From assembly GCA_039794005.1 (NCBI GenBank), contig JBAMMA010000017.1:114490-178489 (forward strand): 64,000 bases of DNA, given 5' to 3'. The notes beneath the pieces are model-generated. The model was given only the letters and a program-made list of their open reading frames with translations, was not told the DNA's origin and did not search any database. This document shows, piece after piece, positions 1 through 50,159 of this stretch (its first letter is position 1; every line of letters starts with the position of its first letter). The position numbers were made by a program, and so were the translations under genes. This DNA is from Thermoplasmata archaeon (GTDB taxonomy: Archaea > Thermoplasmatota > Thermoplasmata > Thermoplasmatales > ARK-15).

Positions 1-663
1 TGCACCAATGACATCGCCATTAACAAATCCAAAATTTTTCAGGGAAATATATTTTATTACAAATGAAACAAGGATTCCTATGTATGATATAAAATAATGA
101 AAATGGAATATTAATATTAGTGGTGTAGTATATATTAAGCCTATAAACAGATAATATGGTCTGAAATTCTTGAAAAATATTTCTCCTATGCCACTTGGAT
201 ATACTTTTTCATATAAACCGAAAAGCATCGAAAATTTTGCAGATAATTCTGACAATATAAAAAATGAGAATATATTAAAATAATCTAATTTCAAATTATA
301 TAGTGAGAAAATTTCAGTTAATATTACAATCAAAACTGAAAATGTGCCTGCAATTCCTGTATTTACATCTTTTAAGGCCTTTATTTTCTTTTCCAAGCTA
401 CCCTTTGCCATTACACCATCTGAAAAATCCGCGAGGCCATCCAGATGCAATAAACCTAATATAAGATAAATAAAGATTATAACTATTAAAGAATATATTA
501 TTTTTGGAATAAACATTAATAATATTGCAAAAAGAGAGAATATAAATCCAAATAAAATTCCCAAGAATGGCAATAAATAAGATATCTCAGAAGCCTTATT
601 AATATCGCTTTTTCCAGGTATTCTGGAGAAAAATGAAATAATTGATGAAATGTAATCAATCAT
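1..663 (-). CDS. cobS: Adenosylcobinamide-GDP ribazoletransferase (cobalamin synthase), runs off the left edge
   Basis: Hand translation from ATG at 663: MIDYISSIISFFSRIPGK...GLLHLDGLADFSDG...ALKDVNTG. The HLDGLAD-x-x-DG motif is typical of CobS. Not in the ORF track because it is truncated. Confidence 0.9.
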   Translation of the reverse strand, partial: MIDYISSIISFFSRIPGKSDINKASEISYLLPFLGILFGFIFSLFAILLMFIPKIIYSLIVIIFIYLILGLLHLDGLADFSDGVMAKGSLEKKIKALKDVNTGIAGTFSVLIVILTEIFSLYNLKLDYFNIFSFFILSELSAKFSMLFGLYEKVYPSGIGEIFFKNFRPYYLFIGLIYTTPLILIFHFHYFISYIGILVSFVIKYISLKNFGFVNGDVIGA

Positions 664-868
664 TAATTGTAAAAAATATTTTAAGATTTATACATTTTCA
701 TTATTGTAAATTTTACTAGAAAAATTTATTAAGTTTAAAATATTTCTAATAATTGTAAGAAAAATTTGAACAAGGGGTGGGAAGATAGAAAAACACAAGA
801 ATTATAGAATAAGATTCAGGTCAAGATAAAAATTAAAATATTTTTTAATATTTTAAATTTTGATTTAT

Positions 869-1834
869 ATGTTTATATTGGTTATTTCCAACACATTAGT
901 TGCACAAATTCCAGGTATTACTGAGGCTGGAGCGAATATTGAATTGATTAAATATACGCCTGTTGCAGATGCAGAATTTCTATTTTATTCTAAACCCATT
1001 TCAATAGATGCAATACCGGTTACACCAGAAGGACATCCTACTCCCGCAATAATTACCAAGGCAGTAAAGAATATTTTGAATTTTCCCATAATTGTTGTTA
1101 GATCTGGGACAATATTATATCCAAAGATACCACACATTTTCATTCATGAAAGGCCAGGGGAAAACATAATGGAAAATGATGGCCTTCCACATATTGACGA
1201 AATTTTAGAAAGGTCTGAGTTACTTGGAATGGAGTTTTCAGATTTATTTGATAATGTTTATATTGCTGAGAGTGTTCCAGGAGGAACAACAACATCCCTT
1301 GCCGTATTAAATTCTTTAGGTTATGAGGCAAGTGTTTCTTCGTCAATGAAAAACAATCCTATAAATTTGAAAAGAAAGATTGTTGAGAATTCATTGAAAA
1401 GGAAAAAGGCAAACAGTTGGTATGAAAGTTTGAAATATTTTGGGGATCCAATGATGGCTTTTATAGTTGGATTTTCTCAGGGTTTTAAAAAAGAGGTCTA
1501 TCTTTTTGGTGGGACACAAATGTTAGCTGCTGCCGCATTAATGAAGGAGACAGGTAAAATGCCTAGGAAAATTGTTACAACAAGATACGTTATAGAAGAT
1601 AAAACTGCAACATTTTCGTCTACAGCAAAAGATATAGGAGTGGAATATTATGCATCATACTTGGACTTTTCAGATTCAAAATATTTTGGCCTAAGGGATT
1701 ATGAAAGTGGCATGGTAAAAGAGGGTGTCGGAGCAGGTGGATCGGTTTACCTTGCTGAAAAAGCCGGTATAAAATGGGAAGATATAAAAAACAAGATAGA
1801 AGAAATATATGAAAACATTATTAAAAAAAGATAA
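869..1834 (+). CDS. cobT: Archaeal-type nicotinate-nucleotide:dimethylbenzimidazole phosphoribosyltransferase
   Basis: Motifs IPGITEAGA, TPVADAEF, GHPTPAIIT, AESVPGGTTT, GGTQMLA, KEGVGAGG; cobalamin context. ATG at 869 preferred to TTG at 860. Confidence 0.88.
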   Translation: MFILVISNTLVAQIPGITEAGANIELIKYTPVADAEFLFYSKPISIDAIPVTPEGHPTPAIITKAVKNILNFPIIVVRSGTILYPKIPHIFIHERPGENIMENDGLPHIDEILERSELLGMEFSDLFDNVYIAESVPGGTTTSLAVLNSLGYEASVSSSMKNNPINLKRKIVENSLKRKKANSWYESLKYFGDPMMAFIVGFSQGFKKEVYLFGGTQMLAAAALMKETGKMPRKIVTTRYVIEDKTATFSSTAKDIGVEYYASYLDFSDSKYFGLRDYESGMVKEGVGAGGSVYLAEKAGIKWEDIKNKIEEIYENIIKKR

Positions 1835-2393
1835 TAATATTATAATATCGGAATTTTATGAAAATTTATTCACGATTACATCATCCAATTTCAATGGAAA
1901 ATTTGGATACAAAAGAGGATTTTACATAAAAGGCATTAAAAATTATGTAAAGGATTTTAAAAAATTGCACAAAGAGATATTAAATAAATATAAAATTAAA
2001 AATTACACTGGATTTTTTACACTTGCAAAAATTCCAGACCATTTTTTCTACAATTATGAAAATAATATCGAAATCTTCACAAGCATAGGCATTTCACACG
2101 TATGTTTTCCAGGAGAAATTTGCAAAAAAATGGGCACAATAAATATAATTATAGTTTTATATGAAGAATTAAAGGTCAACGCCTCAATAGATATATTAAG
2201 CCTAGCATCATCAATTAAATCATATTATTTATGCAAAAATGGGTTGGGATATTCAACACCATCGGATGCAATAATGGTATCATTTAAAAAGGGCAATAGC
2301 ATAGAGTATGCCGGTCCATCAACAAAAATTGGATTCAAAATATCCAAAATGATATCAGATATTTTTGAAGATTATTTTAACAAATTTCATTGA
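1809..2393 (+). CDS. cbiZ: Adenosylcobinamide amidohydrolase-like protein (divergent)
   Basis: GTINIIIV, STPSDAI and YAGPSTKIG resemble CbiZ blocks; overlaps cobT. Confidence 0.65.
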   Translation: MKTLLKKDNNIIISEFYENLFTITSSNFNGKFGYKRGFYIKGIKNYVKDFKKLHKEILNKYKIKNYTGFFTLAKIPDHFFYNYENNIEIFTSIGISHVCFPGEICKKMGTINIIIVLYEELKVNASIDILSLASSIKSYYLCKNGLGYSTPSDAIMVSFKKGNSIEYAGPSTKIGFKISKMISDIFEDYFNKFH

Positions 2394-3814
2394 TTTTCCA
2401 TTAGCTCTATTATTCTCTCCATTTTTACATTTTTTTCCACTGTTTCAGCAATCTTTTCAATTATTTCATCAACATTGTAATTTAATTCTACATCATCTAT
2501 AAACATTTTCATAATTGACTTCATGAAATTTTGATTTGCAAATATATCATGAATATATGTTCCAATTGCATTTTTCCCGACTGATCCATCGTATCTCTTT
2601 ATGGGGATCATATTCTCTTTATAAACAATGCTGAATGGATTACTAGATTCCGTATTCCCAAAATGTATCTCATAACCTTTTACAATCCCCTTCATTCTTT
2701 CATCGATTATTTCAGCCTCTACCATCGTTGCCTTCTTTGTATTACTAAATACCGTTTTTGAATCCAATAATCCCATTCCATTTATTTCTCCAATTTTAGA
2801 TTCAAAATTGTCGATGATCTTTTTACCCATCATCTGATAACCACCACATATTCCAATAACAAGTGTTCCATCCCTGTGTAATTCTTTTATTCTATCTTCA
2901 ATGCCATTTTCCCTTATATAAATTAAATCATCAACGGTTCTTTTTGAACCGGGAATTATAATGACGTCCGGGTCCTTTATATCCTCAGCTTTCTCTGCAA
3001 AACTAATTCCTGCATCTTTAATAAAATAAAATGGATGAAAATCTGTGGAATTAGCAATGTTTGGCAATTTTATTATTGAAAAATTTACCTTCCCTTTTTT
3101 CCATCTATAATCGAATAAACTATCTTCCATTGGCAGGAAATCTTCCATATAAGGGATTGTCCCAATATGTTCTATTCTATATTTTTCCTCTAGATATTTA
3201 ATGGCAGGTTCCAACAATTTTTCATCTCCTCTGAATTTATTTAAAATGTATCCATGGAATTTTATTTCATTGGCAAGCATTATTGTACCTACAATTTGTG
3301 CAAATGCGCCACCTACATCAATATTAGATACTAAAATGTTTACAGAATCAATTCTTTTGGCCAATTCCCTGTTTGGCAAATCATATTCAATGTTAATTTC
3401 CGCTGGAGATCCAGCACCTTCTATTATTACTATATCATTTTTTTCTCTCAATGCATTTAAACTTTCATAAACATAATTGAAAAATATTTCTTTTTTTGAT
3501 TTAAAATATTCATACCCATCTATTTTTCCATAGAATTTACCCATCAATATCGTGTGTAAACTATCCTTTTCTGGTTTCAACAATATGGGATTCATCCTGG
3601 CTTCTGGAATATTTCTTGCAGCTTTTGCTTGAACGTATTGTGCATAGGCGATTTCTCCATTGATTGCGGCCGCTGAGTTTAATGACATGTTTTGTGCTTT
3701 GAATGGGGAGACCTTGAAACCCATGTTTGAAAATATCCTTGCAAATGCTGTTACCATTGTACTCTTTCCTGCTCCAGACATGGTTCCCATTATAAACAAA
3801 GGCTTAATGCCCAT
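2387..3814 (-). CDS. cbiP: Cobyric acid synthase
   Basis: GTMSGAGKS, PFKAQNMSLNS, MNPILLKP, EGAGSPAEIN; glutaminase domain GICGGYQM and GYEIH. Confidence 0.95.
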   Translation of the reverse strand: MGIKPLFIMGTMSGAGKSTMVTAFARIFSNMGFKVSPFKAQNMSLNSAAAINGEIAYAQYVQAKAARNIPEARMNPILLKPEKDSLHTILMGKFYGKIDGYEYFKSKKEIFFNYVYESLNALREKNDIVIIEGAGSPAEINIEYDLPNRELAKRIDSVNILVSNIDVGGAFAQIVGTIMLANEIKFHGYILNKFRGDEKLLEPAIKYLEEKYRIEHIGTIPYMEDFLPMEDSLFDYRWKKGKVNFSIIKLPNIANSTDFHPFYFIKDAGISFAEKAEDIKDPDVIIIPGSKRTVDDLIYIRENGIEDRIKELHRDGTLVIGICGGYQMMGKKIIDNFESKIGEINGMGLLDSKTVFSNTKKATMVEAEIIDERMKGIVKGYEIHFGNTESSNPFSIVYKENMIPIKRYDGSVGKNAIGTYIHDIFANQNFMKSIMKMFIDDVELNYNVDEIIEKIAETVEKNVKMERIIELMENQ

Positions 3815-4772
3815 ATTTTATACCCTCATGATTTCTTATATCCATTCCTTTTAATAAATTTATCAATAGATCATTTTCTTCTTTCTTTCTGATTGAAAAT
3901 CTTATGTATCCTTTCAATCCAAAAGATTCACAGTTTCTTACTAATATGTTATTTTTCCTCAGATATTCAAAGAGATCTATTTTGTCGGAAGTAACTAAGA
4001 AAAAGTTTGCGTCGGATTTTATATTAAAAATATTTTCAAACCTCTTCTTTTCTTTCTTTATATATTCAACAGTCTCATAAACAAAATTATAATTTTTTAT
4101 TGCATATTCTGCAAATTTACATCCAGTAATACCCATTGACCATGGAATCGAGAATTCCCTCATTTTTTCAATGTATTTTTTGTTTCCGAAGGCGTATCCT
4201 GCCCTAATACCTGGAACTCCAAATTGTTTTGTCAGACTTCTTAGTACTATTATATTATCTGAATAATGCTCTTTTTTAATATCTGAAAAATCAATGTATG
4301 CCTCATCTAAAATAACTATGGAATTTTTTCTTTCGGCTGTTTGAACAATATCATCTAAATCAATATATTTACCTGTGGGATTGTTTGGGTTTGATATAAA
4401 AACTATTGCATCTGACTTTATTAATTCTGATGGATATGGATCTATATTTTTCAAAACATCCTTCTTCATATTAAAAAGGTCTGCTATTCTTTCATATTCC
4501 TTGTATGTTACATCCATAAACCTAGCGACTTTACCAGAGAATGCATATCCAACTTGGTATAAAAGTTCAGTAATTCCTGCAGAGAAAATTACATCATAAT
4601 CTATTTTGAATTTTTCCTTTATCATATCTTCAATATATGAGCAGTATGGATATCTTGAAAAATCGTATTTTATTTCATTTAAAAATTCTGGAATATATGG
4701 ATTAACATTTGAAGAAAAATCAATCATATCGTATTCAGACGGTCTTGCACCACCATGGAAAATTGAAGACAT
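3804..4772 (-). CDS. cobD: L-threonine-O-3-phosphate decarboxylase (PLP, class I/II aminotransferase fold)
   Basis: HGG, DFSSNVNP, NPNNPTG, DEAY, RSLTKQFGVPGIRAGY; lies between cbiB and cbiP. Confidence 0.85.
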   Translation of the reverse strand: MSSIFHGGARPSEYDMIDFSSNVNPYIPEFLNEIKYDFSRYPYCSYIEDMIKEKFKIDYDVIFSAGITELLYQVGYAFSGKVARFMDVTYKEYERIADLFNMKKDVLKNIDPYPSELIKSDAIVFISNPNNPTGKYIDLDDIVQTAERKNSIVILDEAYIDFSDIKKEHYSDNIIVLRSLTKQFGVPGIRAGYAFGNKKYIEKMREFSIPWSMGITGCKFAEYAIKNYNFVYETVEYIKKEKKRFENIFNIKSDANFFLVTSDKIDLFEYLRKNNILVRNCESFGLKGYIRFSIRKKEENDLLINLLKGMDIRNHEGIKYGH

Positions 4773-5634
4773 ATATCAACACCCCCGTTATAATAACAAT
4801 TGTATAAGAAATAACAATGGTTATCTTTAAAGCTTTTATTACATCTTCTCTTTCTGGCAATGGACCAAAATCAATTCTATAATAACCTATCTTTTCAAGG
4901 GTTCTTTTCAAGATTGCGGCCATCGGGGCCATTGTATACATTCCATTAATCTTTAATTTTCTGTATTTTTTAAGGGCGATTTTTACTTCTCTGAAAGAAA
5001 ATGGTAAAAATAGAATAGAGGTTAATCTGGCAGGTATAAAATTTAAAACGTCATCAAGTCTTGCAGCGAATTTTCCAAAATAAAAATATCTTTCATTCTT
5101 GTAACCGATCATTGAATCCATTGTGTTTACTATCCTATAAAACAGTGCACCAGGAATTCCAAATATTAAAAAATAAAACATGGGTCCGGAGATTGAATCT
5201 GTAATAGATTCTGCTGATGATTCTATGGCAGCTGAATATAAATGATTTTTATCTAAATTTTTTGTATCTCTGCCTACAATCTTTGAAACATTCTTTCTTA
5301 GATTATCAATGTTGTCCGTATCGCAAGATTTTACATGCCTGATCAGGGAACCTATGGAAAATGTCGATTTAAATATATAAATATCTAACAATATTTTTAT
5401 ATATATATTTAATTTCAAACATTCAAAATATATAAAAGGTATTAAAAAAATTATTATCGTAAATATTGAAAATATTGACCCAAATAAAATGTCTATCTTT
5501 CCCTTTCTTCTGTAAATCTTGTCAAAAAATCCTATGGTTTTTCCGATCCAAACAACAGGGTGAAAATATAATGGATATTCTCCAAATATATCAATAATTA
5601 TTGAAAATAAAAATACTATAAAAATGTAGTTCAT
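4735..5634 (-). CDS. cbiB: Adenosylcobinamide-phosphate synthase
   Basis: HPVVWIG, IVGRDT, AIESSAES, YRIVNTMDSMIGY, ARLDDVLNFIPARLT. Confidence 0.95.
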   Translation of the reverse strand: MNYIFIVFLFSIIIDIFGEYPLYFHPVVWIGKTIGFFDKIYRRKGKIDILFGSIFSIFTIIIFLIPFIYFECLKLNIYIKILLDIYIFKSTFSIGSLIRHVKSCDTDNIDNLRKNVSKIVGRDTKNLDKNHLYSAAIESSAESITDSISGPMFYFLIFGIPGALFYRIVNTMDSMIGYKNERYFYFGKFAARLDDVLNFIPARLTSILFLPFSFREVKIALKKYRKLKINGMYTMAPMAAILKRTLEKIGYYRIDFGPLPEREDVIKALKITIVISYTIVIITGVLIYVFNFPWWCKTV

Positions 5635-6329
5635 GGATATATCTGTATTGCATTCTTTTCACTTGATTTTATTCTAAATGCCCTAACATTTAATTCATTA
5701 TTTATCTTTTCTATGCATTTATCAACCGATTTTTCACTGGGCCTTGGAAAATTTGGGGAAACTTCAATCATCATATCTATCCTTAAAATTGGGTTTTCAA
5801 TCAATCCCGAAATAAATTTTGAAATTTCATATGAGTTATCGCATCCAAGCATATTTTCAGAATATACCGTTTCAAATGTAAACTTTTCATTCACCAATCT
5901 TTTTAAATTTTCTAATGATTTCGTATTGTCCCTTTTTGTTATTTTAATATGCTTTTCCCTATCAAGCGTTTTTATTGAAAATGATATTCTATCTGATAAT
6001 TCTACGATTTCATATGTTAACAATTCTCCATTTGTCAATAAATTGATCTTAATTCCAAGATTCTTTAAAATTTTGATGAGATCGATCAATTCTCTATCTA
6101 ATGTTGGCTCACCACCTCCTAAAAATACCTCTTTTATTTTATTATCATTTAAAATTTTAATGATGTCGCTAATCTCTAAAAAATTGATACCTTTGAAATC
6201 TATTTTCTCAGAATGTATGTCATATCTTGATTTTTTTAGTATGCAAAATTCACAGTCCCAATTGCAACCATAAAAAAATAAATAGGCGGAAGAGTCTGGA
6301 AATTTTGTTATATGATATACGTTTGTCAT
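5631..6329 (-). CDS. Radical SAM protein of unknown function (glycyl-radical activating enzyme-like), in cobamide operon
   Basis: CNWDCEFC (CX3CX2C), GGGEPTL, LLTNG. Likely start ATG 6329, just after the btuF stop; the track starts at 6353. Confidence 0.85.
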   Translation of the reverse strand: MTNVYHITKFPDSSAYLFFYGCNWDCEFCILKKSRYDIHSEKIDFKGINFLEISDIIKILNDNKIKEVFLGGGEPTLDRELIDLIKILKNLGIKINLLTNGELLTYEIVELSDRISFSIKTLDREKHIKITKRDNTKSLENLKRLVNEKFTFETVYSENMLGCDNSYEISKFISGLIENPILRIDMMIEVSPNFPRPSEKSVDKCIEKINNELNVRAFRIKSSEKNAIQIYP

Positions 6330-6330
6330 C

Positions 6331-7338
6331 TCAGCTCGATAGGTATATCTCATTTATGGTTAAAGGACTTACCTCATTTGCCAAGTTCGGATATAGTGTA
6401 ACGAAAATTTCATAAATACCGATGAAAAGCTGTGGACCTGGTTCCTCAATGTAATAATCCGGTAAGATTATGAAATGTTTCAACTTTACGGCTGTCAAAT
6501 TGGAAAACATGCTGTTATTTACAAATTGTGATAATAGAGATTCTTGATCTTGGGAAACTATAATCCAATTAGGATTTGCATTTACTATATTTTCAGGATT
6601 TATTATAAAATATCCAACACCGAAAGATGCGATGTTTATTCCACCTGCACTTATGATCATATCATTTATGAATGTGTTTTCTCCTGCTGTCCATATTGGA
6701 TTATACCAACCCAAGTAAAATACAGTTGACCTGTTTTTAATATTATGTAAAACATTGTTTAAATTATTTTCAAATTTTTCTAATGCATTAATTACCTTTG
6801 TTGCATTGTTTAAATCATTGGTTGCATAACCCAATAAAAATATGTCATGTATGATTCCATCCAAATTCTCCGGATACATAAACAGAACAGGTATTCCAGC
6901 ATTTTCAATCTGTTGTATTGCGTTGGGATCATAAATTCCTCCAAATGCCAATACCAAATTTGGCTTCAATGACAAAACCTTTTCCACAGATACATTTGTT
7001 AATCCTCCTATTTTTGTTATATTCTTAGCTGATGGTGGATATGTGTCATATACAGTATCACCAACAATATATTTACCAAGGCCTATAGAATATGCAATTT
7101 CCGTGCATGATGGTGCTAATGACACAATTCTATTTACAGGTTCTTTTATTTTTACAATGTTATTTAAATCATCGATTACTGTTACATAAGTGTAATTTGT
7201 GGTTTTATTTTGCATTGTAGTATTGTTTTGCATATATGTTTTATTTTCCATTGTATTAAAGAAATATCCGGCTGAAAAAGAGACTATTATAACTAAAACC
7301 AAGATTATTGCAATGATCCAACTTTTCATATCTTTCAC
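6331..7338 (-). CDS. btuF: Cobalamin ABC transporter substrate-binding protein
   Basis: N-terminal TM anchor, RIVSLAPSCTEIAYSIG, EKVLSLKPNLV, PGP motif; cobamide cluster context. Confidence 0.85.
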   Translation of the reverse strand: MKDMKSWIIAIILVLVIIVSFSAGYFFNTMENKTYMQNNTTMQNKTTNYTYVTVIDDLNNIVKIKEPVNRIVSLAPSCTEIAYSIGLGKYIVGDTVYDTYPPSAKNITKIGGLTNVSVEKVLSLKPNLVLAFGGIYDPNAIQQIENAGIPVLFMYPENLDGIIHDIFLLGYATNDLNNATKVINALEKFENNLNNVLHNIKNRSTVFYLGWYNPIWTAGENTFINDMIISAGGINIASFGVGYFIINPENIVNANPNWIIVSQDQESLLSQFVNNSMFSNLTAVKLKHFIILPDYYIEEPGPQLFIGIYEIFVTLYPNLANEVSPLTINEIYLSS

Positions 7339-7414: not shown

Positions 7415-7996
7415 ATGAATGATACATATTCACTCTATAAACTTGCGGAATCGACTGTTTGCATGATGAAGTGGAATGATTGTGTTTATTTTTATTCAAT
7501 ATTGTTAGAAAGGAATGATATACCCGGTGAATTGTTAGCTGGAGCATGGCATGGGTATGGGGATTGTTTGGAAAAAATAAAGAAAAAGGAAGAAAGTCTA
7601 AAAGCATATGAGAGGGCGCTCGAATATCATATGAAAGATGCAGTTAAAAATAATAAAGCGAGCTCATACCTATGGGGTTCATGGGCTGCATTAAAATTGA
7701 ATAAAACGGATCTGGCATATGACATGATTAAAAAATCCTTGGACCTGGATCCTGACTATGCATATTCATGGCTGACATATTCCGTTATTTCTTCAAAATT
7801 GGGTAAAAAGGAAGAATCAGAATATGCAAGAAATATGTATAAAAAACTAATTGAAATAAGACCTTACAAAGACAGAATATGTGAAGGTCTTGAAATGCTT
7901 AAATCGGTTATTGATAATCTGGATGGGGATATAAGAGAAAGGGCTGAAAATATATTAAAAAATACGAAGTGCAAGGAAAATGTTAATAAAGAGTGA
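7415..7996 (+). CDS. TPR-like helical repeat protein
   Basis: AWHGYGDCLEK...AYERAL and LDPDYAYSWLTYS are TPR-type motifs; overlaps btuC start. Confidence 0.7.
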   Translation: MNDTYSLYKLAESTVCMMKWNDCVYFYSILLERNDIPGELLAGAWHGYGDCLEKIKKKEESLKAYERALEYHMKDAVKNNKASSYLWGSWAALKLNKTDLAYDMIKKSLDLDPDYAYSWLTYSVISSKLGKKEESEYARNMYKKLIEIRPYKDRICEGLEMLKSVIDNLDGDIRERAENILKNTKCKENVNKE

Positions 7997-8990
7997 AAAA
8001 AACAGGGAGTATTTTACTATTTCAATCATTTTTCTCTCTATTCTATCAATAATATTTTCAATGGCGATAGGGCCTGTTAATATAAGCATATCAGAGATTT
8101 TGGAATACCTTTTTCTTTTAAGGGATAAAGGAACTGTTGGTATTATATTGTGGGATATAAGGATTCCTAGAATATTCTTGGCATTTTTGGTAGGATCTTC
8201 TCTGGCATCCGTTGGGGTTGTTATGCAGTCTATTTTTAGAAATCCACTTGCCGATCCATATATAACTGGGACTGCATCAGGAGCTGCTTTTGGTGCTACT
8301 TTGGCAGTAATAACGAATTTGTATTTAATCTCATTCTTGTACCTTCCATTTTTTGCATTTCTTGGCGCAATGTTTGCAACCACTCTTTCATTTTTCATAT
8401 CTTATTTATCTGGCAACAGAAGAAATGAAAACTTACTTTTAGCGGGCCTTGGCATTTCTATATTTTTGTCTTCTTTGGTATCTTATATGATGTATATGGA
8501 TGGAAAGGATTTGGATTATTTGTTCTATTGGCTTATGGGGAGTTTCAGCGGTGCACAAATGTATATGGTATACACGGTATTTTTAATATTCATTCCATCT
8601 ATAATAATATTGATAATATTTTCAAGGGATTTGGATTTATTCATGATTGGGGAAGAACATGCAAAGACCCTTGGAATGGATGTGAATAAAAAGAGAATTA
8701 TGTTTTATTTTATTTCATCACTACTTACTGGAGTCAGCATATCATTTGTAGGCATTATCGGATTTGTTGGTCTTATAATACCCCATATAATAAGAATAAT
8801 TGGTGGTTCCTCAAACAGATTTGTTTTATTTAATTCAATTTTTCTGGGAGGTTCATTCATGGTAATTTCCGATACAATTGCAAGATCATTCAACATCATT
8901 GAAGAATTACCTGTAGGGATAATAACATCATTGATTGGGATACCGTTCTTTTTATATTTAATTGCCATTGAAAGGAGGTACTGGACATGA
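7980..8990 (+). CDS. btuC: Cobalamin/iron-siderophore ABC permease (FecCD family)
   Basis: IRIPRI, QSIFRNPLADPYITG, GEEHAKTLG, GIIGFVGLIIPH, LPVGIITS. Confidence 0.9.
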   Translation: MLIKSEKNREYFTISIIFLSILSIIFSMAIGPVNISISEILEYLFLLRDKGTVGIILWDIRIPRIFLAFLVGSSLASVGVVMQSIFRNPLADPYITGTASGAAFGATLAVITNLYLISFLYLPFFAFLGAMFATTLSFFISYLSGNRRNENLLLAGLGISIFLSSLVSYMMYMDGKDLDYLFYWLMGSFSGAQMYMVYTVFLIFIPSIIILIIFSRDLDLFMIGEEHAKTLGMDVNKKRIMFYFISSLLTGVSISFVGIIGFVGLIIPHIIRIIGGSSNRFVLFNSIFLGGSFMVISDTIARSFNIIEELPVGIITSLIGIPFFLYLIAIERRYWT

Positions 8991-9769
8991 TAAAAATTAA
9001 AAATCTTAATTTTTCATATAATAATGAATTTTCATTAAATAATATTAATATGGATATAGAGGATGGAAAAATAGTATCAATCCTTGGACCTAATGGATCT
9101 GGAAAAACTACAATTTTAAAAATTATTTCAGGAATAATTACAGATTACAATGGAGATGTTTTTATAAACAATAAAAATTTGAAAAAATTCAGTAGAAAAG
9201 AATTATCAAAAACAGTTTCATATGTTCCCCAGGACCTGAATATTGCATTTGATTTTACAGTAAAGGAAATAATATCAATGGGAAGATATCCCTATTTATC
9301 TCCAATTTCAAACTTCAATAAAGAGGATTATGAAATAATTGAGAGAGCAATGAAAATTACAGGAACTAAAAATATTGAAAATAGATCAATAAAAGAAATA
9401 TCAGGTGGAGAAAAACAGAGAGTATTGATAGGAAGGGCCCTGGCACAAGGATCAAAAATTATTTTACTTGACGAACCGACCTCGAATCTGGATATAAAAT
9501 ATCAATTGGAAATTTTAAAAATATTAAGCAATTTGGTTAAAAATGAAAATAAGACGGTAATAATGAGTATGCATGATATCAATCTTTCAATAAGATTTTG
9601 CGATGAAATATATCTAATATCTAAAGGTAAAATCGTAGAAAAAGGGGCCCCAGATGATATAATAAATGATAAAACACTTAGTGATGTTTACAATATAAAG
9701 GCAAAAGTTTTAAGGAATGAACATGGAAAAATCTCGTATATTTTTCCCGAGGAAGTTAATGGGCATTGA
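8987..9769 (+). CDS. btuD: Cobalamin/iron ABC transporter ATPase
   Basis: Walker A GPNGSGKT, signature ISGGEKQR, Walker B LLDEPT, H-loop MHD. Confidence 0.9.
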   Translation: MIKIKNLNFSYNNEFSLNNINMDIEDGKIVSILGPNGSGKTTILKIISGIITDYNGDVFINNKNLKKFSRKELSKTVSYVPQDLNIAFDFTVKEIISMGRYPYLSPISNFNKEDYEIIERAMKITGTKNIENRSIKEISGGEKQRVLIGRALAQGSKIILLDEPTSNLDIKYQLEILKILSNLVKNENKTVIMSMHDINLSIRFCDEIYLISKGKIVEKGAPDDIINDKTLSDVYNIKAKVLRNEHGKISYIFPEEVNGH

Positions 9770-11026
9770 TAGATGTCTTCTTGCTACATCTGGAACTTCA
9801 TAATAAATTTCATTTAAATCTCTTTCTAACTTCAATTTAACCTTTTCTGGAGAATATGTGTTACATTTCTTACACCTAAAACCTTTATCCTTTCCCATAG
9901 ATTCCATTGATCTATTGCATATAGGACATTTTGGATTTACTAATACGTATTTTTCTTTTAACTTTAAGATTTTTATCTTTTCTAAATTTAATGTATTATT
10001 ATACTTTTTAACAGATCCGTATAAAAGTAAACTATCTCCTATATCCAATTTTTTAATTATTTGCCTGAATTGTAATGTATGATCATATGCTATAGCATAT
10101 ATTTCCCCTGTACCGTCAGAAACCTTAAAAATAACGTGACCACCCTTTATCGTTTTTGGCTTTTCTATTACCTTGGCCTTTATTATATAAGATCCATACT
10201 CCTTTATTTCTGAAATTTTTGATTTTACTAGATGATCATCTGTGGCCTGATTTGTTTTATATATTATATATGAATCGAAAGGATCTGAAACGACAATTTT
10301 CATAGCCTTTTCTAAATCTTGAAAATTTGTACCCCTTATACCATATAGAACTGGTGTTAAAGTTTCCGGTTTAATCATGACTTTTTTATTTAAATAATCA
10401 TAATTTTCAAATGTTGTTTTTATCATTTTATCCATCATTATAACGGAATTTTCGTCTACATATCTATCTTTATTCCAGCGATCCTCAGGTAAATATGTAA
10501 TCAATTCATAAGTAAATTTTCTAGGCCTCCATGAGATTGCGGCCAAAGCCCCTATTAACCCAGTCTTGTTTTTATAGGCCTTATAATGAAGGCCATTCAA
10601 ATATCCCTCAACATCGTTCAAATTTACTATTTCCCTTACTGCTTTCCAATATAATTTTTCACTCACCTTATCTTTTGTTATTATTATTCCAGGGGATGTT
10701 TTTTCAACATCAAATCTTGCATACCTTTCAACAATATTTGATATCGATTCCATTAAATCTTCAATATCAGGCTCTTCTTTTATTTTATAATAAGCATAAA
10801 TATCTTTACCTTTTACATTCCCAATCTTTATCTTTTTACCTTTTCCTATTCCTAATCTAATGGCTATAGCTGCATTCCCCCTGGTTTTCCAGGGAACATT
10901 TGGATTCAACCTTACAAGTCTTGGAAGTCCAATGAAATCTAGTTTGGTTTCCTCTGCAATCTTTATAGTAATATATGTAGTACACATTCCTTCTGGACCA
11001 TCTGTATCATCTATGCCTACCCACAT
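9710..11026 (-). CDS. tiaS: tRNA(Ile2) agmatinylcytidine synthetase
   Basis: VGIDDTD..GMCTTY, PRLVRLNPNVPWKTRGN, TNQATDDH, OB fold, C-terminal Zn ribbon, ARRHLS. Confidence 0.95.
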   Translation of the reverse strand: MWVGIDDTDGPEGMCTTYITIKIAEETKLDFIGLPRLVRLNPNVPWKTRGNAAIAIRLGIGKGKKIKIGNVKGKDIYAYYKIKEEPDIEDLMESISNIVERYARFDVEKTSPGIIITKDKVSEKLYWKAVREIVNLNDVEGYLNGLHYKAYKNKTGLIGALAAISWRPRKFTYELITYLPEDRWNKDRYVDENSVIMMDKMIKTTFENYDYLNKKVMIKPETLTPVLYGIRGTNFQDLEKAMKIVVSDPFDSYIIYKTNQATDDHLVKSKISEIKEYGSYIIKAKVIEKPKTIKGGHVIFKVSDGTGEIYAIAYDHTLQFRQIIKKLDIGDSLLLYGSVKKYNNTLNLEKIKILKLKEKYVLVNPKCPICNRSMESMGKDKGFRCKKCNTYSPEKVKLKLERDLNEIYYEVPDVARRHLSMPINFLGKNIRDFSMFIP

Positions 11027-11912: not shown

Positions 11913-13364
11913 ATGTTTATTGAAAAATTTTCGGAAATTAGAATTGGGTATACTTTTGATGATGTATTGTTAATACCATCAAAAACAGAGGTAGATCCAA
12001 AGGATGTAAATACAGAAACTAAGCTAACAAGGAACATAAAATTAAAGATACCGATAGTGAGTTCTCCCATGGATACTGTAACAGGACCTGAAATGGCAAT
12101 AGCTATGGCGAGATTGGGTGGAATAGGAATAATTCATAGAAATCAGAGCATTGAGAGTGAAAGAGAGAGTGTTAGAAAAGTCAAAAGGGAGGAAAGCACA
12201 ATAATAAGGGATGTTTTTACAGTTTCTCCTGATGATACGATAAAGAATGTTTTAAAATATATGAGAGAGAAGAACATAACAGGATTTCCGGTTATGAAAA
12301 ACGGTGTTTTGGTGGGTATAATCACAGACAGAGATGTGAGATTTTTGAAAAATCATGATATTAAAGTTGAAGATGTTATGACTAAAAATGTTATTACTGG
12401 TAAAGAGGGAATAACGCTTGACGAGGCTTTGGAAATAATGCAAAGAAATAAAATTGAAAAGTTACCAATAACAGATGAAAATGGAAAGTTGACAGGATTA
12501 ATAACAGCTAAGGATATATTAAAGAGAAAAACATATCCAGATGCAGTCAGAGATGACGATGGGAGACTTCTCGTTGGGGCTGCAGTTGGACCATTTGATG
12601 TTAATAGGGCAAAGGTTTTGGAGGAGGGAGGGGCAGATGTACTTGTGATAGATACGGCACATGCACATAATAAGAAGGTAATGGAAGGCATAAAAGAGAT
12701 TAGAAAAAGTGTAAATATTGATATTATTGCCGGGAATATAGCAACATCCTCGGCGGCTGAAGATTTAATATCTCTTGAGGTGGATGCTCTCAGGGTGGGA
12801 ATTGGCCCTGGATCAATATGCACAACAAGAATAGTTGCAGGGGTAGGAGTTCCACAGTTAACGGCTATTTCTGATGTTGCAGAGGTTGCAGAAAAATATG
12901 GTATTCCCATAATTGCAGATGGAGGTATTAGATATTCTGGGGACATTGTAAAAGCATTAGGTGCTGGAGCACATACAGTAATGTTGGGAAATTTATTGGC
13001 TGGAACTGACGAGGCACCGGGTGAAGAAATAACAATTGGAGGAAGAAAATATAAAACTTATAGAGGCATGGGCTCACTGGGAGTAATACAAAAAGGTATT
13101 TCAGACAGATATGGAAAAATTGGTGAGACAAAATATGTACCTGAAGGTGTTGAAGGTGCAGTACCATATAAAGGTAAGGTTGAAGATGTAATATATCAAT
13201 TGGTTGGAGGCCTTAAATCAGGCATGGGTTATGTTGGGGCAAAGAATATAGAAGATCTGAGAAAGAACACAAAGTTCATCAGAATGACCGGGGAAGGCCT
13301 TAGGGAATCACATCCACATGATATTATGATAATTACAGAATCTCCAAATTATCCAAGATTATGA
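11913..13364 (+). CDS. guaB: IMP dehydrogenase with CBS pair
   Basis: TFDDVLLIP, SSPMDTVT, GIGPGSICTTR, IADGGI, YRGMGS, ESHPHD. Confidence 0.97.
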   Translation: MFIEKFSEIRIGYTFDDVLLIPSKTEVDPKDVNTETKLTRNIKLKIPIVSSPMDTVTGPEMAIAMARLGGIGIIHRNQSIESERESVRKVKREESTIIRDVFTVSPDDTIKNVLKYMREKNITGFPVMKNGVLVGIITDRDVRFLKNHDIKVEDVMTKNVITGKEGITLDEALEIMQRNKIEKLPITDENGKLTGLITAKDILKRKTYPDAVRDDDGRLLVGAAVGPFDVNRAKVLEEGGADVLVIDTAHAHNKKVMEGIKEIRKSVNIDIIAGNIATSSAAEDLISLEVDALRVGIGPGSICTTRIVAGVGVPQLTAISDVAEVAEKYGIPIIADGGIRYSGDIVKALGAGAHTVMLGNLLAGTDEAPGEEITIGGRKYKTYRGMGSLGVIQKGISDRYGKIGETKYVPEGVEGAVPYKGKVEDVIYQLVGGLKSGMGYVGAKNIEDLRKNTKFIRMTGEGLRESHPHDIMIITESPNYPRL

Positions 13365-15181
13365 AAAATAAAATTTTTTATAAAGCATTTATTATTTTAA
13401 TAATTTTCATAATGTTTTCAGAAACATACATAAATATTAATTTATATATAAAAAACAATAATAAAATTTTTAAAAATTTAAATTTAAATGTTTCAAATTT
13501 TTCTGTATATTATGGAAGCGTAAACGATAGCATTATAAATTACTTAAATAAATATGATTTGGTTATATTGCAACATTGGGCAGTTTCTTCATATAATCTC
13601 TCAAAAATTAAAGCGATAAAGATTGCTTACATCGATCTTGGGGAATATGATAACTCTACATATCCAAACTGTACAATAAATCTTACAGGAATTGTGATTG
13701 GTTATGACAATCAATGGAATCAACCAATTGTTAATGTTTCTTCACAAAAATGGATAAACTATACAATTTGCAGGGTAAAATATGACATAAAATTAGGTTT
13801 TAATGGAGTTATGTTTGATGATTTGGATGTTGTAGAGGAGTATCCTTGGGAGGCAAGTGGATTTATTAAGATAATTTCACTCATAAGGCAAGAGTTCAAA
13901 AATATATACATTGGTATAAATAGAGGATTTGAACTAATTAAAAACGTTTCTGAATACATTAATTTTGTATTATACGAAGATTTTGGTACATATTATAATT
14001 TTAATTCCAATGGATATAATTTTTTGAACTTTTCACAATTGGAAAATTTAAGTAATAATATAAATGAAATAAAATCATACGGAATTCAGGTTCTTGCACT
14101 TGGATATTCCCCTGCAGACTGCAACTATTATACATATTTTGATAGTTATATTGCTAATAAATTAAATGTGCCTTTGTATATAGGTAATTGGAATTTAACA
14201 TCTTTATATAATCAATGCAATTTTACATTTAATCTTTATGAAATCATGAAAAATTACAATGAGATGATAGTGGAACAGGCAAATTATATATTGAATTCCC
14301 AGCTGGATGATGGAGCAATTAAAATATCAATAAATAGCAATAAAATAATACCATACATTTCGAATATCGCTTCGATTGGCCTTATATATGCTTACGAATT
14401 GACTGGAAATGAAAGTTATTTAAATTCTGCTAAGAAATGGATTGAATGGTATTCCATTCACCAAAATATAAATAAAGATAATGAAGGCATAGTCGGAACA
14501 ATATATAATTATAACATTTCAAATGGTTTAGAATTATCAACAAATTATTACAATAGTAGCGATTCATACGCCGCCACATTTTTAATATTAATATATGATT
14601 ATTACAATTTGACAGGAAACATAACCTTCATTAAAGAGGAGTATAAAAATATAAAACTCGCTTTAAATGCAATATTTTATACTATGGATAATAATTCAAC
14701 CTATGCTAAGCCAAATTTAAAAGTAAAATATCTAATTGATAATTCTGAGGTTTATTTGGCTCTGCATGATTCAGCAAAAATTTTCAAATTGTTCAACGTT
14801 TCATATTCAAATTATTTAAATAACATATCAAACTCTGTTAAATACAATATTTTAAATTACTTTTTAATAAATAACACATTTTTCGATTGGTCTATTAATG
14901 GTACAATAAACATTTCTAATTATTATCCCGATATTAACGCAAATTATTGGCCTATAATTTTTGGTGTGATTAAATGGAATTCATCAATATCAAATAACAT
15001 TTTCAATTTTTTATTAAACGTTTCATATTATAATCAGGCCATTAATATAACAAATTTAGACCTGTCAGCAGCATACTATTCAACAATCATGGGTCGCAAC
15101 AATATATCCCAAATTATCATAAACAGTATTTTATCAATGGGAAATTACACAAATTGCTGGAATGTTGAGGATAGTTCCTAG
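13361..15181 (+). CDS. Exported glycoside hydrolase-like protein (GH114/PelA-like barrel plus alpha/alpha toroid), N-terminal part of a gene interrupted by an in-frame TAG
   Basis: Signal peptide; YYG..YDLVIL, AYIDLGE, GFNGVMFDDLD, INRGFE (GH114-like); then YELTGNESYL and DSYAATFL (toroid-like). Confidence 0.65.
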   Translation: MKNKIFYKAFIILIIFIMFSETYININLYIKNNNKIFKNLNLNVSNFSVYYGSVNDSIINYLNKYDLVILQHWAVSSYNLSKIKAIKIAYIDLGEYDNSTYPNCTINLTGIVIGYDNQWNQPIVNVSSQKWINYTICRVKYDIKLGFNGVMFDDLDVVEEYPWEASGFIKIISLIRQEFKNIYIGINRGFELIKNVSEYINFVLYEDFGTYYNFNSNGYNFLNFSQLENLSNNINEIKSYGIQVLALGYSPADCNYYTYFDSYIANKLNVPLYIGNWNLTSLYNQCNFTFNLYEIMKNYNEMIVEQANYILNSQLDDGAIKISINSNKIIPYISNIASIGLIYAYELTGNESYLNSAKKWIEWYSIHQNINKDNEGIVGTIYNYNISNGLELSTNYYNSSDSYAATFLILIYDYYNLTGNITFIKEEYKNIKLALNAIFYTMDNNSTYAKPNLKVKYLIDNSEVYLALHDSAKIFKLFNVSYSNYLNNISNSVKYNILNYFLINNTFFDWSINGTINISNYYPDINANYWPIIFGVIKWNSSISNNIFNFLLNVSYYNQAINITNLDLSAAYYSTIMGRNNISQIIINSILSMGNYTNCWNVEDSS

Positions 15182-48222: not shown

Positions 48223-50159
48223 TAAAAATGAAAATTTATCATAATCTAATAACATTAGAAGATGCAAAAATCATATTAAGAAATCTTTTGGATAAAATAA
48301 AATTGGATGTTGAAGAAATAGATTTAAAAAATTCTTATGGAAGAATTTTAGCTGAAGAAATATCCTCAAAGATAGATTCCCCTCCATTTGATAGGTCTGA
48401 GGTTGATGGTTATGCAGTAAACCATTTATCTTTAATAGGCGCTGAGGAAGATAATCCAGTAAAATTGAAGGTAAAATTTTCAATAAACCCTGGAGAATAT
48501 GTAAATGAACATATAAATTTAAATGAAGCTGCTGAAATATCAACAGGTTCAATGATTCCAAAAGGTGCGAATGCTGTTGTTATGGAGGAATATACTAAAA
48601 GGGTAGGAGAATATGTAGAAATATATAGATCTGTATCTCCTGGAGAAAACATTGCATTCACTGGAAGCGATGTTTTAATAGGCGATATAACGCTTTCTAA
48701 AATGACCAAGCTAGATAGCGCTAAGATAGCACTCATAGCATCTCTTGGTTATTCAAAAATTAAGGTGTATAGAAAAATAAGGGCTGGAATATTATCCACA
48801 GGCAATGAAATTTTACCACCAGGGGAAGAACTGAAACCAGGAAAATTATATGATTCAAATTCCTATTCAATTACTTCATATTTAAATATGCTCGATATTG
48901 ATTGGAAATTCTATGGAATAGCAAGAGATGATGAAAATGATATAAAGGAAAAAATATTTAAAGCATTAGAAGAACAGGATATTGTTTTTACGTCTGGAAG
49001 CACATCAGCCGGAAAGGGAGATATCATTTATAAAATAATTGAAGAAAATGGAAAACTTTTATTTCACGGACTTTTAATAAAACCAGGTAAACCCACGCTC
49101 CTCGGTATAATGAATGATAAAATTGTTATTGGACTCCCTGGATTTCCATTCTCATCTTTATCTGTTCTTGAATTTTTAATTAAACCGGTTTTCATGGATT
49201 ATTTAAAAATTCCGAATAAACAGATAAAATTAAATGCTAAAAGTATGATAAAAATAAAATCATCCAAAAATGTAGATGAATTTATACCAGTAGGAATAAT
49301 TAAAAGAATGGGCGAATACTATTTCTATCCCGTGAATTCACAGTCAGGATCAATAACATCAATGATATTTTCAGACGGCATAGCCATTATACCAATGAAT
49401 AAAAATTATATTGAAGAAAATGAAAATGTAGAAATAAGTTTAATAAACAATGAGTTTGAAAATTACGATATAATAGGGATAGGAAGTCATTGCCCTTTAT
49501 TAGATGATATATTAATAGACTATAAGAGGGCAAAATATATAAGAACAGGATCGACTGCAGGGTGGGTCTCAATTGAAAAAAATATAGCTGAATTTGCCGG
49601 GACCCATTTGTTGGATGAAAATACCTTGGAATACAACATACCTTTTATTGAAAAGTACAGGCTAAAAGATAAAGCCAAAATAGTAAGGGGATATGGAAGA
49701 ATGCAGGGGTTTGTTGTTAAAAAAGGAAACCCAAAAGATATAAAGGGCTTTGAAGATTTATTGAGAGAAGATGTTGTTATTGTAAACAGGGTTAAAGGTT
49801 CAGGTACTAGGACACTCTTAGATATAAATCTTAAAAAGATCGCAGAAAAGGAAAATGTAGATTTTAAAGAATTGATACAGGATATAAAGGGTTACTATTT
49901 TGAAGGAAAAACTCATTCCTCTGTTGCTGCTGCAGTTTCACAGGGAAGGGCAGATGTTGGCCTTACTATAGAATATTATGCATATTTATACAATCTGGAT
50001 TTTATACCAATTCAGTCTGAAATATTTGATCTCCTGGTCTCAAACCAAAGTGAAAAAATAGACGAATTTATAGAATATTTCATAAATGCCGTAAAGGAAA
50101 AGTATAGTAAATACAAAGGTTATAAATTATTGGAGGATACGGGTAAAATATATTATTAA
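48219..50159 (+). CDS. moeA: MoeA fused to a periplasmic-binding-protein-like domain
   Basis: PPFDRSEVDGYA, STGNE, KPGKPT, GLPGFP; C-terminal GSHC, GSTAG, NRVKGSGTR, THSSVA. Confidence 0.92.
   Translation: MIKMKIYHNLITLEDAKIILRNLLDKIKLDVEEIDLKNSYGRILAEEISSKIDSPPFDRSEVDGYAVNHLSLIGAEEDNPVKLKVKFSINPGEYVNEHINLNEAAEISTGSMIPKGANAVVMEEYTKRVGEYVEIYRSVSPGENIAFTGSDVLIGDITLSKMTKLDSAKIALIASLGYSKIKVYRKIRAGILSTGNEILPPGEELKPGKLYDSNSYSITSYLNMLDIDWKFYGIARDDENDIKEKIFKALEEQDIVFTSGSTSAGKGDIIYKIIEENGKLLFHGLLIKPGKPTLLGIMNDKIVIGLPGFPFSSLSVLEFLIKPVFMDYLKIPNKQIKLNAKSMIKIKSSKNVDEFIPVGIIKRMGEYYFYPVNSQSGSITSMIFSDGIAIIPMNKNYIEENENVEISLINNEFENYDIIGIGSHCPLLDDILIDYKRAKYIRTGSTAGWVSIEKNIAEFAGTHLLDENTLEYNIPFIEKYRLKDKAKIVRGYGRMQGFVVKKGNPKDIKGFEDLLREDVVIVNRVKGSGTRTLLDINLKKIAEKENVDFKELIQDIKGYYFEGKTHSSVAAAVSQGRADVGLTIEYYAYLYNLDFIPIQSEIFDLLVSNQSEKIDEFIEYFINAVKEKYSKYKGYKLLEDTGKIYY

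Follow-up and report, generated by a model that had tools for sequence, protein, structure and literature searches.

The window analysed here is a stretch of 64,000 nucleotides from a Thermoplasmata archaeon (contig JBAMMA010000017.1 of assembly GCA_039794005.1, positions 114,490 to 178,489), which carries on its minus strand a gene for a radical S-adenosylmethionine (SAM) enzyme, situated between a btuF-like gene of corrinoid import and the salvage gene cbiB. This gene and the members of its family are called X throughout, and individual loci are designated by numbers with the prefix L. The open reading frame (ORF) of X can be read as 5631..6353 (240 aa, from the first ATG) or as 5631..6329 (232 aa, MTNVYHIT...), and the start at 6329 is supported by the 13 close homologs, all 230-243 aa in length, each of which begins at MT(N/R)(V/I)YHIT. 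The features of X are:

5631..6329, minus strand: X, radical SAM enzyme of 232 aa, assigned from Pfam, homologs, an AlphaFold (AF2) model and gene neighbourhood
6243..6266, minus strand: codons of C22-NWD-C26-EF-C29 (CX3CX2C), the [4Fe-4S]/SAM cluster motif, with C22, C26 and C29 invariant in 38 diverse family members
6105..6119, minus strand: codons of G71-G-G-E-P75, the "GGE" SAM-binding motif, from alignments and a profile-to-PDB comparison

Reading of the DNA places the stop codon TGA of the btuF-like gene at 6333-6331, a single spacer base at 6330 and the ATG of X at 6329-6327, and the TGA of X (5633-5631) overlaps the ATG of cbiB (5634-5632) by 4 nt within the sequence ATGA. The earlier note on this DNA, made from its letters, had described a compact CX3CX2C protein located 1 bp after btuF and extending 4 bp into cbiB, and both its description and its coordinates are correct. 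The Pfam Radical_SAM model (PF04055) scores 73.8 bits on X against a cutoff of 29.5 (E = 2.4e-20), far above the cutoff, and therefore the cysteine motif does not arise by chance. The translational coupling that had been considered likely turns out to be the rule family-wide, since the junctions of X are mostly 4-nt overlaps or ≤10 nt. When support for co-transcription was sought in RNA-seq data, the sequence was matched in hot-spring DNA metagenomes only.

A word-indexed search returned 13 close relatives only, all from Thermoplasmata or metagenomes. An exhaustive HMMER profile search revealed a far wider family of proteins of ~230-290 aa with end-to-end matches, and a re-search with a 38-sequence alignment recovered members labelled Nitrososphaerales, Thermoprotei, Alkanophagales, ANME-1, Bathyarchaeota, Chloroflexota and Dehalogenimonas. 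Multi-domain matches of the exhaustive search were rejected as informative fusions, as they are unrelated tandem radical SAM/SPASM proteins. Members of the family share an N-terminal xVYHIT strand, more broadly (T)x(V/I)YH(I/V)T, as well as CN(F/W)xCxxC, WDxH, GGGEPTxD, LTNG, SIKA-x5-H-xxx-TG-x-SN, ETVxIPG and RIDxYxPVPxxPWRxP. A comparison of three alignments established that the window protein carries these motifs of a proposed BtuFCD-associated radical SAM family, with the C-terminal PWR motif being degenerate (F-x-R-P) in the Thermoplasmata clade and a divergent GQE motif marking a Dehalococcoidia subfamily. Two cysteines outside the cluster motif, C163 and C205, never vary within the Thermoplasmata clade, recur in three near relatives (P0016-P0018) and are absent from the remaining family. 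A description of the family was not found in the open-access text that was searched. X had been called an orphan, which holds in the sense that no curated family claims it and does not hold otherwise, as it has many homologs and its family is widespread.

The AF2 model of X (pLDDT 87.9, pTM 0.85) depicts a compact partial barrel resembling that of the pyruvate formate-lyase activating enzyme (PFL-AE), without an auxiliary-cluster, SPASM or B12-binding domain. Using Foldseek, PFL-AE was the best match in the PDB (TM 0.76, E = 7e-12), followed by viperin, NifB, QueE, SuiB and MoaA, and all of the top 50 PDB matches displayed are radical SAM enzymes. A profile-to-PDB search likewise aligned the family with PFL-AE over its full length, including the WDxH behind the cluster motif; because PFL-AE has the identical WDxH, the DxH at this position was rejected as a B12-binding, DxHxxG-like ligand. 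The glycyl-radical activases are thus the closest relatives of X in sequence and fold. The likeness to PflA (PDB 3C8F/3CB8), YjjW and NrdG comprises the compact (beta/alpha)6 radical SAM core, a similar size (232 aa in X against 245 aa in PFL-AE, neither with an auxiliary cluster) and the elements FFxGC...CxxC..WDxH, GGE, TNG, (S/D)xK-x5-H-x3-G-x-SN-x3-LE, a PG strand and a C-terminal P...W segment; the conserved GGGEP, LTNG and SIK of X align with their counterparts in PFL-AE and MoaA. In contrast to these activases, X lacks the DGxGxR glycine-loop motif, which is deleted since the segment from the first strand (YHIT) to FFxGC is shorter, and scores 40-60 bits where the cutoffs are 131-250, and has as its genomic partner a corrinoid ATP-binding cassette (ABC) importer instead of a nearby glycyl-radical enzyme.

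Curated models of known radical SAM families gave the following scores on X:

NrdG2 (NCBIfam, best sub-threshold match): 59.6 bits, cutoff 131
MoaA: 58 bits, cutoff 284
QueE: 46.9 bits, cutoff 260
YjjW (TIGR04041): 40.9 bits, cutoff 250
PFLA (TIGR02493): 40.2 bits, cutoff 232

The activase families included in these tests were PflA (TIGR02493), NrdG (TIGR02491/02495) and YjjW (TIGR04041), and no curated family cutoff was reached by any of eight diverse homologs or by a paralogous radical SAM protein, rSAM2, that is encoded in several of the same clusters. The 232-aa X contains neither the C-terminal Cys cluster and Mob_synth_C domain (PF06463) that are hallmarks of MoaA, nor a SPASM domain (PF13186; its non-cluster cysteines number two and are confined to one clade), nor the B12-binding Rossmann domain (PF02310), and hence is not a class B enzyme. 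Similarity to ThiC/BzaF was not found with Pfam and NCBIfam models. By the features of its sequence and modelled fold, X is a genuine radical SAM enzyme and would be expected to cleave SAM. Alignment with PFL-AE, placement outside every curated family and loss of DGxGxR together suggest that it derives from the activase-like clade and would act on a different substrate.

What ties this family to vitamin B12 is its genomic neighbourhood, examined in a scan of one genome per species that yielded 80 further loci, with 83 non-redundant loci counted in all. ORFs called at every locus were compared with B12 proteins taken from the window, L011 and L013, and neighbours were in addition clustered label-free. 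The number of these 83 loci in which a given neighbour lies within 7 kb of X is as follows:

BtuF 71, BtuC 55, BtuD 50
CbiB 38, CobD 35, PF01902 ATP pyrophosphatase 28
CbiZ 26, CbiP 22, CobS 20
CobT 15, CobY 14, Asn-synthase-like protein 13

By comparison, a randomly chosen gene would have a BtuF-type gene within 14 genes by chance in a few percent of cases, which is a rough estimate rather than a computed value. The loci span Thermoplasmata, Hadarchaeota, Bathyarchaeia, Nitrososphaeria, ANME-1, Methanocellales, Nitrospirota, Omnitrophota and others. Immediately beside X stands BtuF (33 times upstream, 15 downstream) or BtuC (19 times downstream), X and btuF share one same-strand gene run with gaps <150 bp in 55 of 80 loci, and btu genes are present in 54 of the 66 loci outside Thermoplasmata. 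The close relatives all have the order btuF-X-cbiB-cobD-cbiP, with cbiZ, cobT, cobS and cobY; their linkage alone proves little, because their whole neighbourhood is syntenic. More telling are the distant homologs. Those from Nitrososphaerales and Thermoprotei, with 25-37% identity, lie on contigs arranged as btuF-DUF4015-rSAM2-X-btuC-btuD-cobD-cbiP-cbiB-cbiZ/pgpA-cobS and as btuDCF plus rSAM2 divergent from X-PF01902-cobD-cbiB-cbiZ/pgpA-cobS-cobY-AsnSyn, respectively. X often stands between btuF and btuC, but the gene order varies by lineage (btuF-X-btuC-btuD, btuFCD-X, X-btuFCD, btuF-X-cbiB), and therefore the linkage of X with the btu genes has survived many rearrangements. Bacterial X operons lie downstream of cobalamin riboswitches on the same strand (L051, L077, L078, L082, L083), and their partners also include a TonB receptor, CobU, a bacterial CobT and CobA/BtuR.

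Loci with a reduced or altered gene content indicate which of the partners matters most. ANME-1 loci have btuF-btuF-X-btuC-btuD and nothing further of the B12 set. Conversely, X was not found in salvage clusters devoid of btuFCD, namely those of Pyrococcus (L101) and of two Thermoplasmata (L102/L103): the Pyrococcus woesei cluster reads cbiB-PF01902-pgpA-cobD and the two Thermoplasmata clusters read cobS-cobY-cbiB-cobD. No replacement gene occupies the position of X in these three clusters, which shows merely that X accompanies btuFCD. Another context is seen in Dehalogenimonas etheniformans and on a related contig, where X is followed by between one and three genes for B12-binding radical SAM enzymes and by reductive dehalogenases; these B12-radical-SAM neighbours were rejected as BzaD/E and are generic class B enzymes. 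X tracks the transporter and not the loop-assembly genes. In unrelated anaerobic archaea and bacteria alike, X is physically and translationally coupled to the BtuFCD importer and to late/salvage B12 genes, and the recurrence beside btuF and cbiB that the earlier note had proposed to look for is found as a strong enrichment near B12 genes in many unrelated lineages and several gene orders. Its interpretation thereby stands in general form, in that a radical SAM family is tied to corrinoid uptake and salvage. The family is undescribed, uncurated, widespread and dedicated to corrinoid uptake and salvage, and, as far as can be judged from sequence data, X is a real and widespread component of B12 salvage.

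The substrate of X is very probably a corrinoid, handled in the cytoplasm after delivery by BtuCD and before re-entry into the CbiZ, CbiP, CbiB and CobY-S-T route, because a corrinoid is what all contexts have in common, including the B12-enzyme context of Dehalogenimonas. As to the reaction, the favoured proposal, put forward tentatively and with somewhat less than even chances, is that X conditions the cobalt centre or the upper axial ligand of corrinoids that have just been imported. The cobalt face is preferred as the site of reaction because the state of the cobalt and its upper ligand is what sets imported corrinoids apart from internal intermediates. X would in this respect be a prokaryotic, anaerobic counterpart of the post-transport steps carried out by BtuR/CobA and by human CblC. 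The reduced [4Fe-4S]+ cluster would cleave SAM, and the resulting 5'-deoxyadenosyl radical would be released against the beta face of the bound corrinoid. In a variant (a), the radical and cob(II) would recombine to form adenosyl-corrinoid, with no need for ATP or cob(I). In a variant (b), homolytic substitution by the radical would remove an alkyl ligand, and the cob(II) left behind would pass to a conventional adenosyltransferase. Of the two, variant (a) is the chemically simpler one and would suit archaeal clusters complete for salvage save for the adenosyltransferase (e.g. L035, L050, L052), whereas variant (b) agrees with the presence of CobA in some of the bacterial operons and with the Dehalogenimonas context.

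Known systems provide precedents for such a step. Adenosylation by BtuR/CobA is the classical first cytoplasmic step, and btuR was discovered as a B12-uptake gene. Human CblC (MMACHC) and bacterial BtuM couple processing of the upper ligand to transport, CblC by flavin/glutathione chemistry and BtuM through a cysteine ligand, neither being a radical SAM enzyme. The comparison of X with CblC and BtuM is a functional analogy without homology, in which the shared concept is that the first cytoplasmic step removes or alters the upper ligand and so makes the corrinoid usable for downstream enzymes. CobA/BtuR, PduO and EutT resemble X in the proposed role right after import and, for variant (a), in an identical adenosyl-corrinoid product; they are unrelated to it in sequence and fold, and the adenosyl donor would be SAM plus one electron via a radical for X, as opposed to ATP and cob(I) for CobA. 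Uptake is linked with adenosylation through btuR/cobA in E. coli (PMC11841063), a precedent for coupling to cobalt-ligand processing, and known adenosyltransferases are absent from some archaeal lineages (PMC7617358). CobA is encoded directly behind btuD in seven X-family loci.

Several observations weigh against this proposal. CobA/BtuR (PF02572, 195 bits) lies in the gene run of X in eight bacterial loci, overlapping X in L066, and X is hence unlikely to be a simple CobA substitute. In archaea, salvage clusters have no adenosyltransferase even when X is missing too, which makes the argument from a missing gene weak. On both grounds, plain replacement of an adenosyltransferase was demoted as the main explanation. 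For the homolytic removal of an alkyl group by the 5'-deoxyadenosyl radical itself, we are aware of no precedent among enzymes. Partners such as the amidases (CbiP or an Asn-synthase-like protein), PF01902, CbiE-like methylases and NirJ/AhbD-like proteins fit a reaction at the ring or side chains equally well. The Dehalococcoidia subfamily with its GQE motif may have a different role, and no B12 gene is found near X in three loci (L015, L018, L065); a B12 link is likewise missing in one Bathyarchaeota locus plus one more. A stronger form of variant (a), in which X constitutes a fourth, ATP-independent class of corrinoid adenosyltransferases whose SAM-derived radical is caught by the cob(II) of the imported corrinoid, bypassing cob(I), is unlikely. 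Such an enzyme would be of use to anaerobic archaea in which CobA, PduO and EutT are missing from the clusters and, in some lineages, from the entire genome; in bacteria it would operate alongside CobA but draw on another pool of substrates.

Another account keeps the corrinoid as substrate and moves the reaction to the corrin periphery, where the radical would take a hydrogen from a ring or side-chain carbon of a damaged or non-native imported corrinoid; we regard it as possible and rather doubtful. The reaction could re-epimerise C8/C13, open a c-lactone or lactam, or decarboxylate or cleave a side chain, and such repair would pair with amidating enzymes that restore hydrolysed side chains. 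Abstraction from an sp3 C-H is the default chemistry of radical SAM enzymes, and several partners act at the periphery: CbiP in pure salvage clusters, the Asn-synthase-like protein, PF01902, the CbiE-like methylase between btuF and X in Methanocellales and the NirJ2/AhbD-like radical SAM protein of L076. The frequent company of rSAM2 hints at a second site or a second substrate, corrinoids are damaged faster in thermophiles or acidophiles, to which many hosts belong, and C163 and C205 of the Thermoplasmata clade could be hydrogen donors. However, these extra cysteines are not kept family-wide, X follows the transporter and not the amidases, and in Pyrococcus the PF01902 gene accompanies cbiB and cobD with X absent. 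Moreover, organisms are not known to salvage such damaged corrinoids from a natural pool, and the Dehalogenimonas context is left unexplained. Alternatively, X could be directed at a protein or peptide, placing a radical or a modification on a component of the transporter, on a B12-dependent enzyme or on a peptide of the CbpA type. This would agree with PFL-AE, YjjW-type and NrdG-type activases being its nearest relatives, with the full-length alignment to PFL-AE, with the location of Nitrospirota X directly behind cbpB (TIGR04163), itself behind cbpA (TIGR04164), and with that of Dehalogenimonas X ahead of B12-dependent radical SAM genes. It is nevertheless quite improbable, given the deletion of DGxGxR and the lack of an RVxG-type motif conserved in any neighbour. 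CbpA and CbpB occur in few bacterial loci only, and a search for a CbpA-like or other conserved small ORF flanking X in archaea found none. Universal protein partners of X are limited to BtuF, which is extracytoplasmic, and BtuC/BtuD.

The proposals of the earlier note, a new corrinoid-processing, lower-ligand or linker enzyme, fared unequally: corrinoid processing fits best, because X goes with the transporter and not with cobT or cobD, and the other two fit poorly. Synthesis of the lower ligand by an anaerobic benzimidazole/phenol route, or of the aminopropanol-phosphate linker through a rearrangement to L-threonine phosphate, would supply one of two parts that are both needed by salvagers rebuilding the nucleotide loop, and neither a PduX-type threonine kinase nor BluB/Bza genes are seen in X clusters. 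Yet X seldom adjoins cobT and adjoins cobD in two loci only, the ANME-1 X is accompanied by btuFCD alone, Bathyarchaeial clusters keep X despite a threonine-kinase candidate beside cobD that resembles cofactor-independent phosphoglycerate mutase (iPGM), and the absence of likeness to ThiC/BzaF speaks in the same direction, so that such a role is very unlikely. Least credible of all is an ordinary activase of the NrdG, PflA, QueE or MoaA type that came to lie in the operon by chance or as a B12-regulated back-up for a B12-independent isozyme. NrdG2 and MoaA are indeed the best sub-threshold NCBIfam matches, but the curated cutoffs (131-380 bits) are all missed widely, the btuFCD linkage crosses phyla, and a separate, true MoaA with Mob_synth_C is encoded elsewhere in relatives. 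Furthermore, no nrdD or pflB neighbour and no glycyl-radical partner with a conserved RVxG-type motif was found in the 83 loci. Membership of X in a known activase family whose partner is in the genome, which the earlier note had held against its own interpretation, is thus not what the profiles, the motifs and the neighbouring genes indicate, and the neighbourhood data essentially refute an ordinary activase.

Two further radical SAM systems are close to X in genomic setting. ChuW/HutW is a HemN-like methyltransferase of ~450 aa, encoded in anaerobic heme-uptake operons, that destroys the ring and frees the iron. It resembles X in pairing a radical SAM gene with a tetrapyrrole importer of type II (FecCD/Peripla_BP_2) and, as proposed for X, acts on the imported macrocycle; unlike ChuW, X belongs to another radical SAM clade, and in its clusters the ring is evidently retained, because cbiB, cobS and other loop genes share the operon. 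CbpB (TIGR04163, "rSAM_cobopep") is the sole curated radical SAM family annotated with cobalamin operons and shares bacterial operons with X, which it directly precedes in L077 and L083. It differs in being a SPASM peptide maturase of ~450 aa, whereas X has no SPASM domain, is far wider in distribution, including archaea, and mostly occurs without CbpA/CbpB.

Corrinoid salvage and remodelling are held to be solved with BtuFCD, CobA, CbiZ, CbiB, CobU/Y, CobS, CobT and CobC/Z. That X recurs inside the importer operons of so many anaerobes, thermophilic Nitrososphaeria among them, suggests that this picture lacks a step, and whatever reaction X performs would be new enzymology on B12, be it radical Co-C chemistry, corrinoid repair or another transformation. 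X would also bear on the sharing of B12 among uncultured anaerobes and would provide an annotation marker separating corrinoid importers from look-alike iron/heme FecCD systems.

Some recurrent partners of X merit description in their own right. The ATP pyrophosphatase of PF01902 (Dph6-like, "PAB0415-family") counted in 28 loci recurs in corrinoid clusters (e.g. L101:9862-10509, L013:8800-9513 and L078:8406-9083) and is adjacent to X 13 times. In Pyrococcus woesei, where the radical SAM gene is absent, it stands in cbiB-PF01902-pgpA(cobZ)-cobD; it may be an overlooked ATP-dependent partner of CbiB or a side-chain amidase. The Asn-synthase-like protein of ~325 aa consists of the synthetase domain alone (L013:14133-15110 and 12 other loci) and never shares a locus with CbiP (13 and 22 loci, none in common), which makes it a candidate ammonia-dependent replacement for this cobyric acid synthase. 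In Bathyarchaeia clusters, the iPGM-like protein directly beside cobD (L055:5108-6355, L048:3319-4590 and L058:2-1201), whose best NCBIfam matches are apgM and the "proposed homoserine kinase" TIGR02535, could be the so far missing L-threonine kinase, the source of threonine phosphate. The paralog rSAM2, of ~297 aa and with an activase-like core, is uncurated and often lies beside a short CbiZ-like hydrolase. It occurs in 11 B12-linked loci (e.g. L011:6675-7565, L013:6392-7291 and L082:8953-9816); its label was given to 15 loci, among which the weak matches L015, L018, L077 and L083 are other radical SAM proteins such as CbpB.

CbpA peptides, with the conserved stretch ...YR(L/K)KC.K...GLSH(F/Y)V..., and the CbpB SPASM maturase (TIGR04164/TIGR04163) are encoded in B12 uptake operons under riboswitch control in Nitrospirota, Omnitrophota and unclassified bacterial metagenome-assembled genomes (L083:8406-8567 with 8647-9996, L081:3273-3389 with 3478-4932, and also L077, L082 and L059). 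CbiE-like tetrapyrrole methylases, besides those between btuF and X (L070, L071, L074), are inserted into the importer operon at L072:7851-8648, L076:4428-5860 and L090:2826-3491; they score over the TIGR02467 domain cutoff and under equivalog cutoffs, and L076 has two tandem copies plus the NirJ2/AhbD-like radical SAM protein. In ANME-1 and Alkanophaga, giant proteins (~680-1700 aa) with BtuF-type domains are encoded beside the importer genes (L046:908-8220, L054:633-8032, L056:4231-9882 and L068:4642-9895) and may capture corrinoids at the cell surface. Behind btuD, at L097:11153-11776 and five other archaeal loci, lies the gene of a DUF4443 protein whose N-terminal domain is a winged helix; it is a candidate B12-responsive regulator in archaea, which to our knowledge lack cobalamin riboswitches.

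In the window itself, X is surrounded by the following genes:

6331..7338, minus strand: BtuF-like substrate-binding protein (Peripla_BP_2), by Pfam; the family's commonest immediate neighbour
4735..5634, minus strand: cbiB, adenosylcobinamide-phosphate synthase (TIGR00380, 249.6 bits, cutoff 165.9)
3804..4772, minus strand: cobD-like L-threonine-O-3-phosphate decarboxylase with pyridoxal-phosphate-dependent aminotransferase fold, under curated cutoffs and assigned from context
2387..3814, minus strand: cbiP/cobQ cobyric acid synthase (469.6 bits, cutoff 273)
7415..7996, plus strand: tetratricopeptide repeat (TPR) protein opening a divergent TPR-btuC-btuD unit, conserved in the Thermoplasmata clade
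7980..8990, plus strand: btuC-like FecCD permease, by Pfam/NCBIfam
8987..9769, plus strand: btuD-like ABC ATPase, short form without the C-terminal MJ0874 domain, by Pfam/NCBIfam
860..1834, plus strand: archaeal-type cobT (TIGR00303)
1809..2393, plus strand: cbiZ adenosylcobinamide amidohydrolase, by Pfam/NCBIfam
1..663, minus strand: cobS, by homology, continuing past the window edge
9710-11026: TiaS

Together with a database protein of 99% identity that is labelled "Thermoplasmata archaeon", TiaS assigns the window to a metagenome-assembled genome of Thermoplasmata. No adenosyltransferase was found among ten other ORFs of the window (seven small ones of suitable size and three large ones). 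The divergent btuCD unit begins 85 bp beyond btuF, and the small TPR gene at its head is a constant of this unit in the Thermoplasmata clade; Alkanophaga likewise has a TPR gene, ahead of btuF (L046, L054). BtuD of the window is a short form of 260 aa, whereas most archaeal clusters encode a form of 426-440 aa with a C-terminal PF27219 "MJ0874" domain (L011:9819-11099, L013:1990-3309). Farther away, directly behind the gene for IMP dehydrogenase, 13361-15181 on the plus strand encodes an Asn-rich protein of 606 aa with many N-x-S/T sites and no Pfam match, which may be a glycosylated surface protein, and 48228-50159, also on the plus strand, encodes MoeA (molybdopterin molybdenumtransferase) fused to a C-terminal solute-binding domain resembling periplasmic binding proteins.

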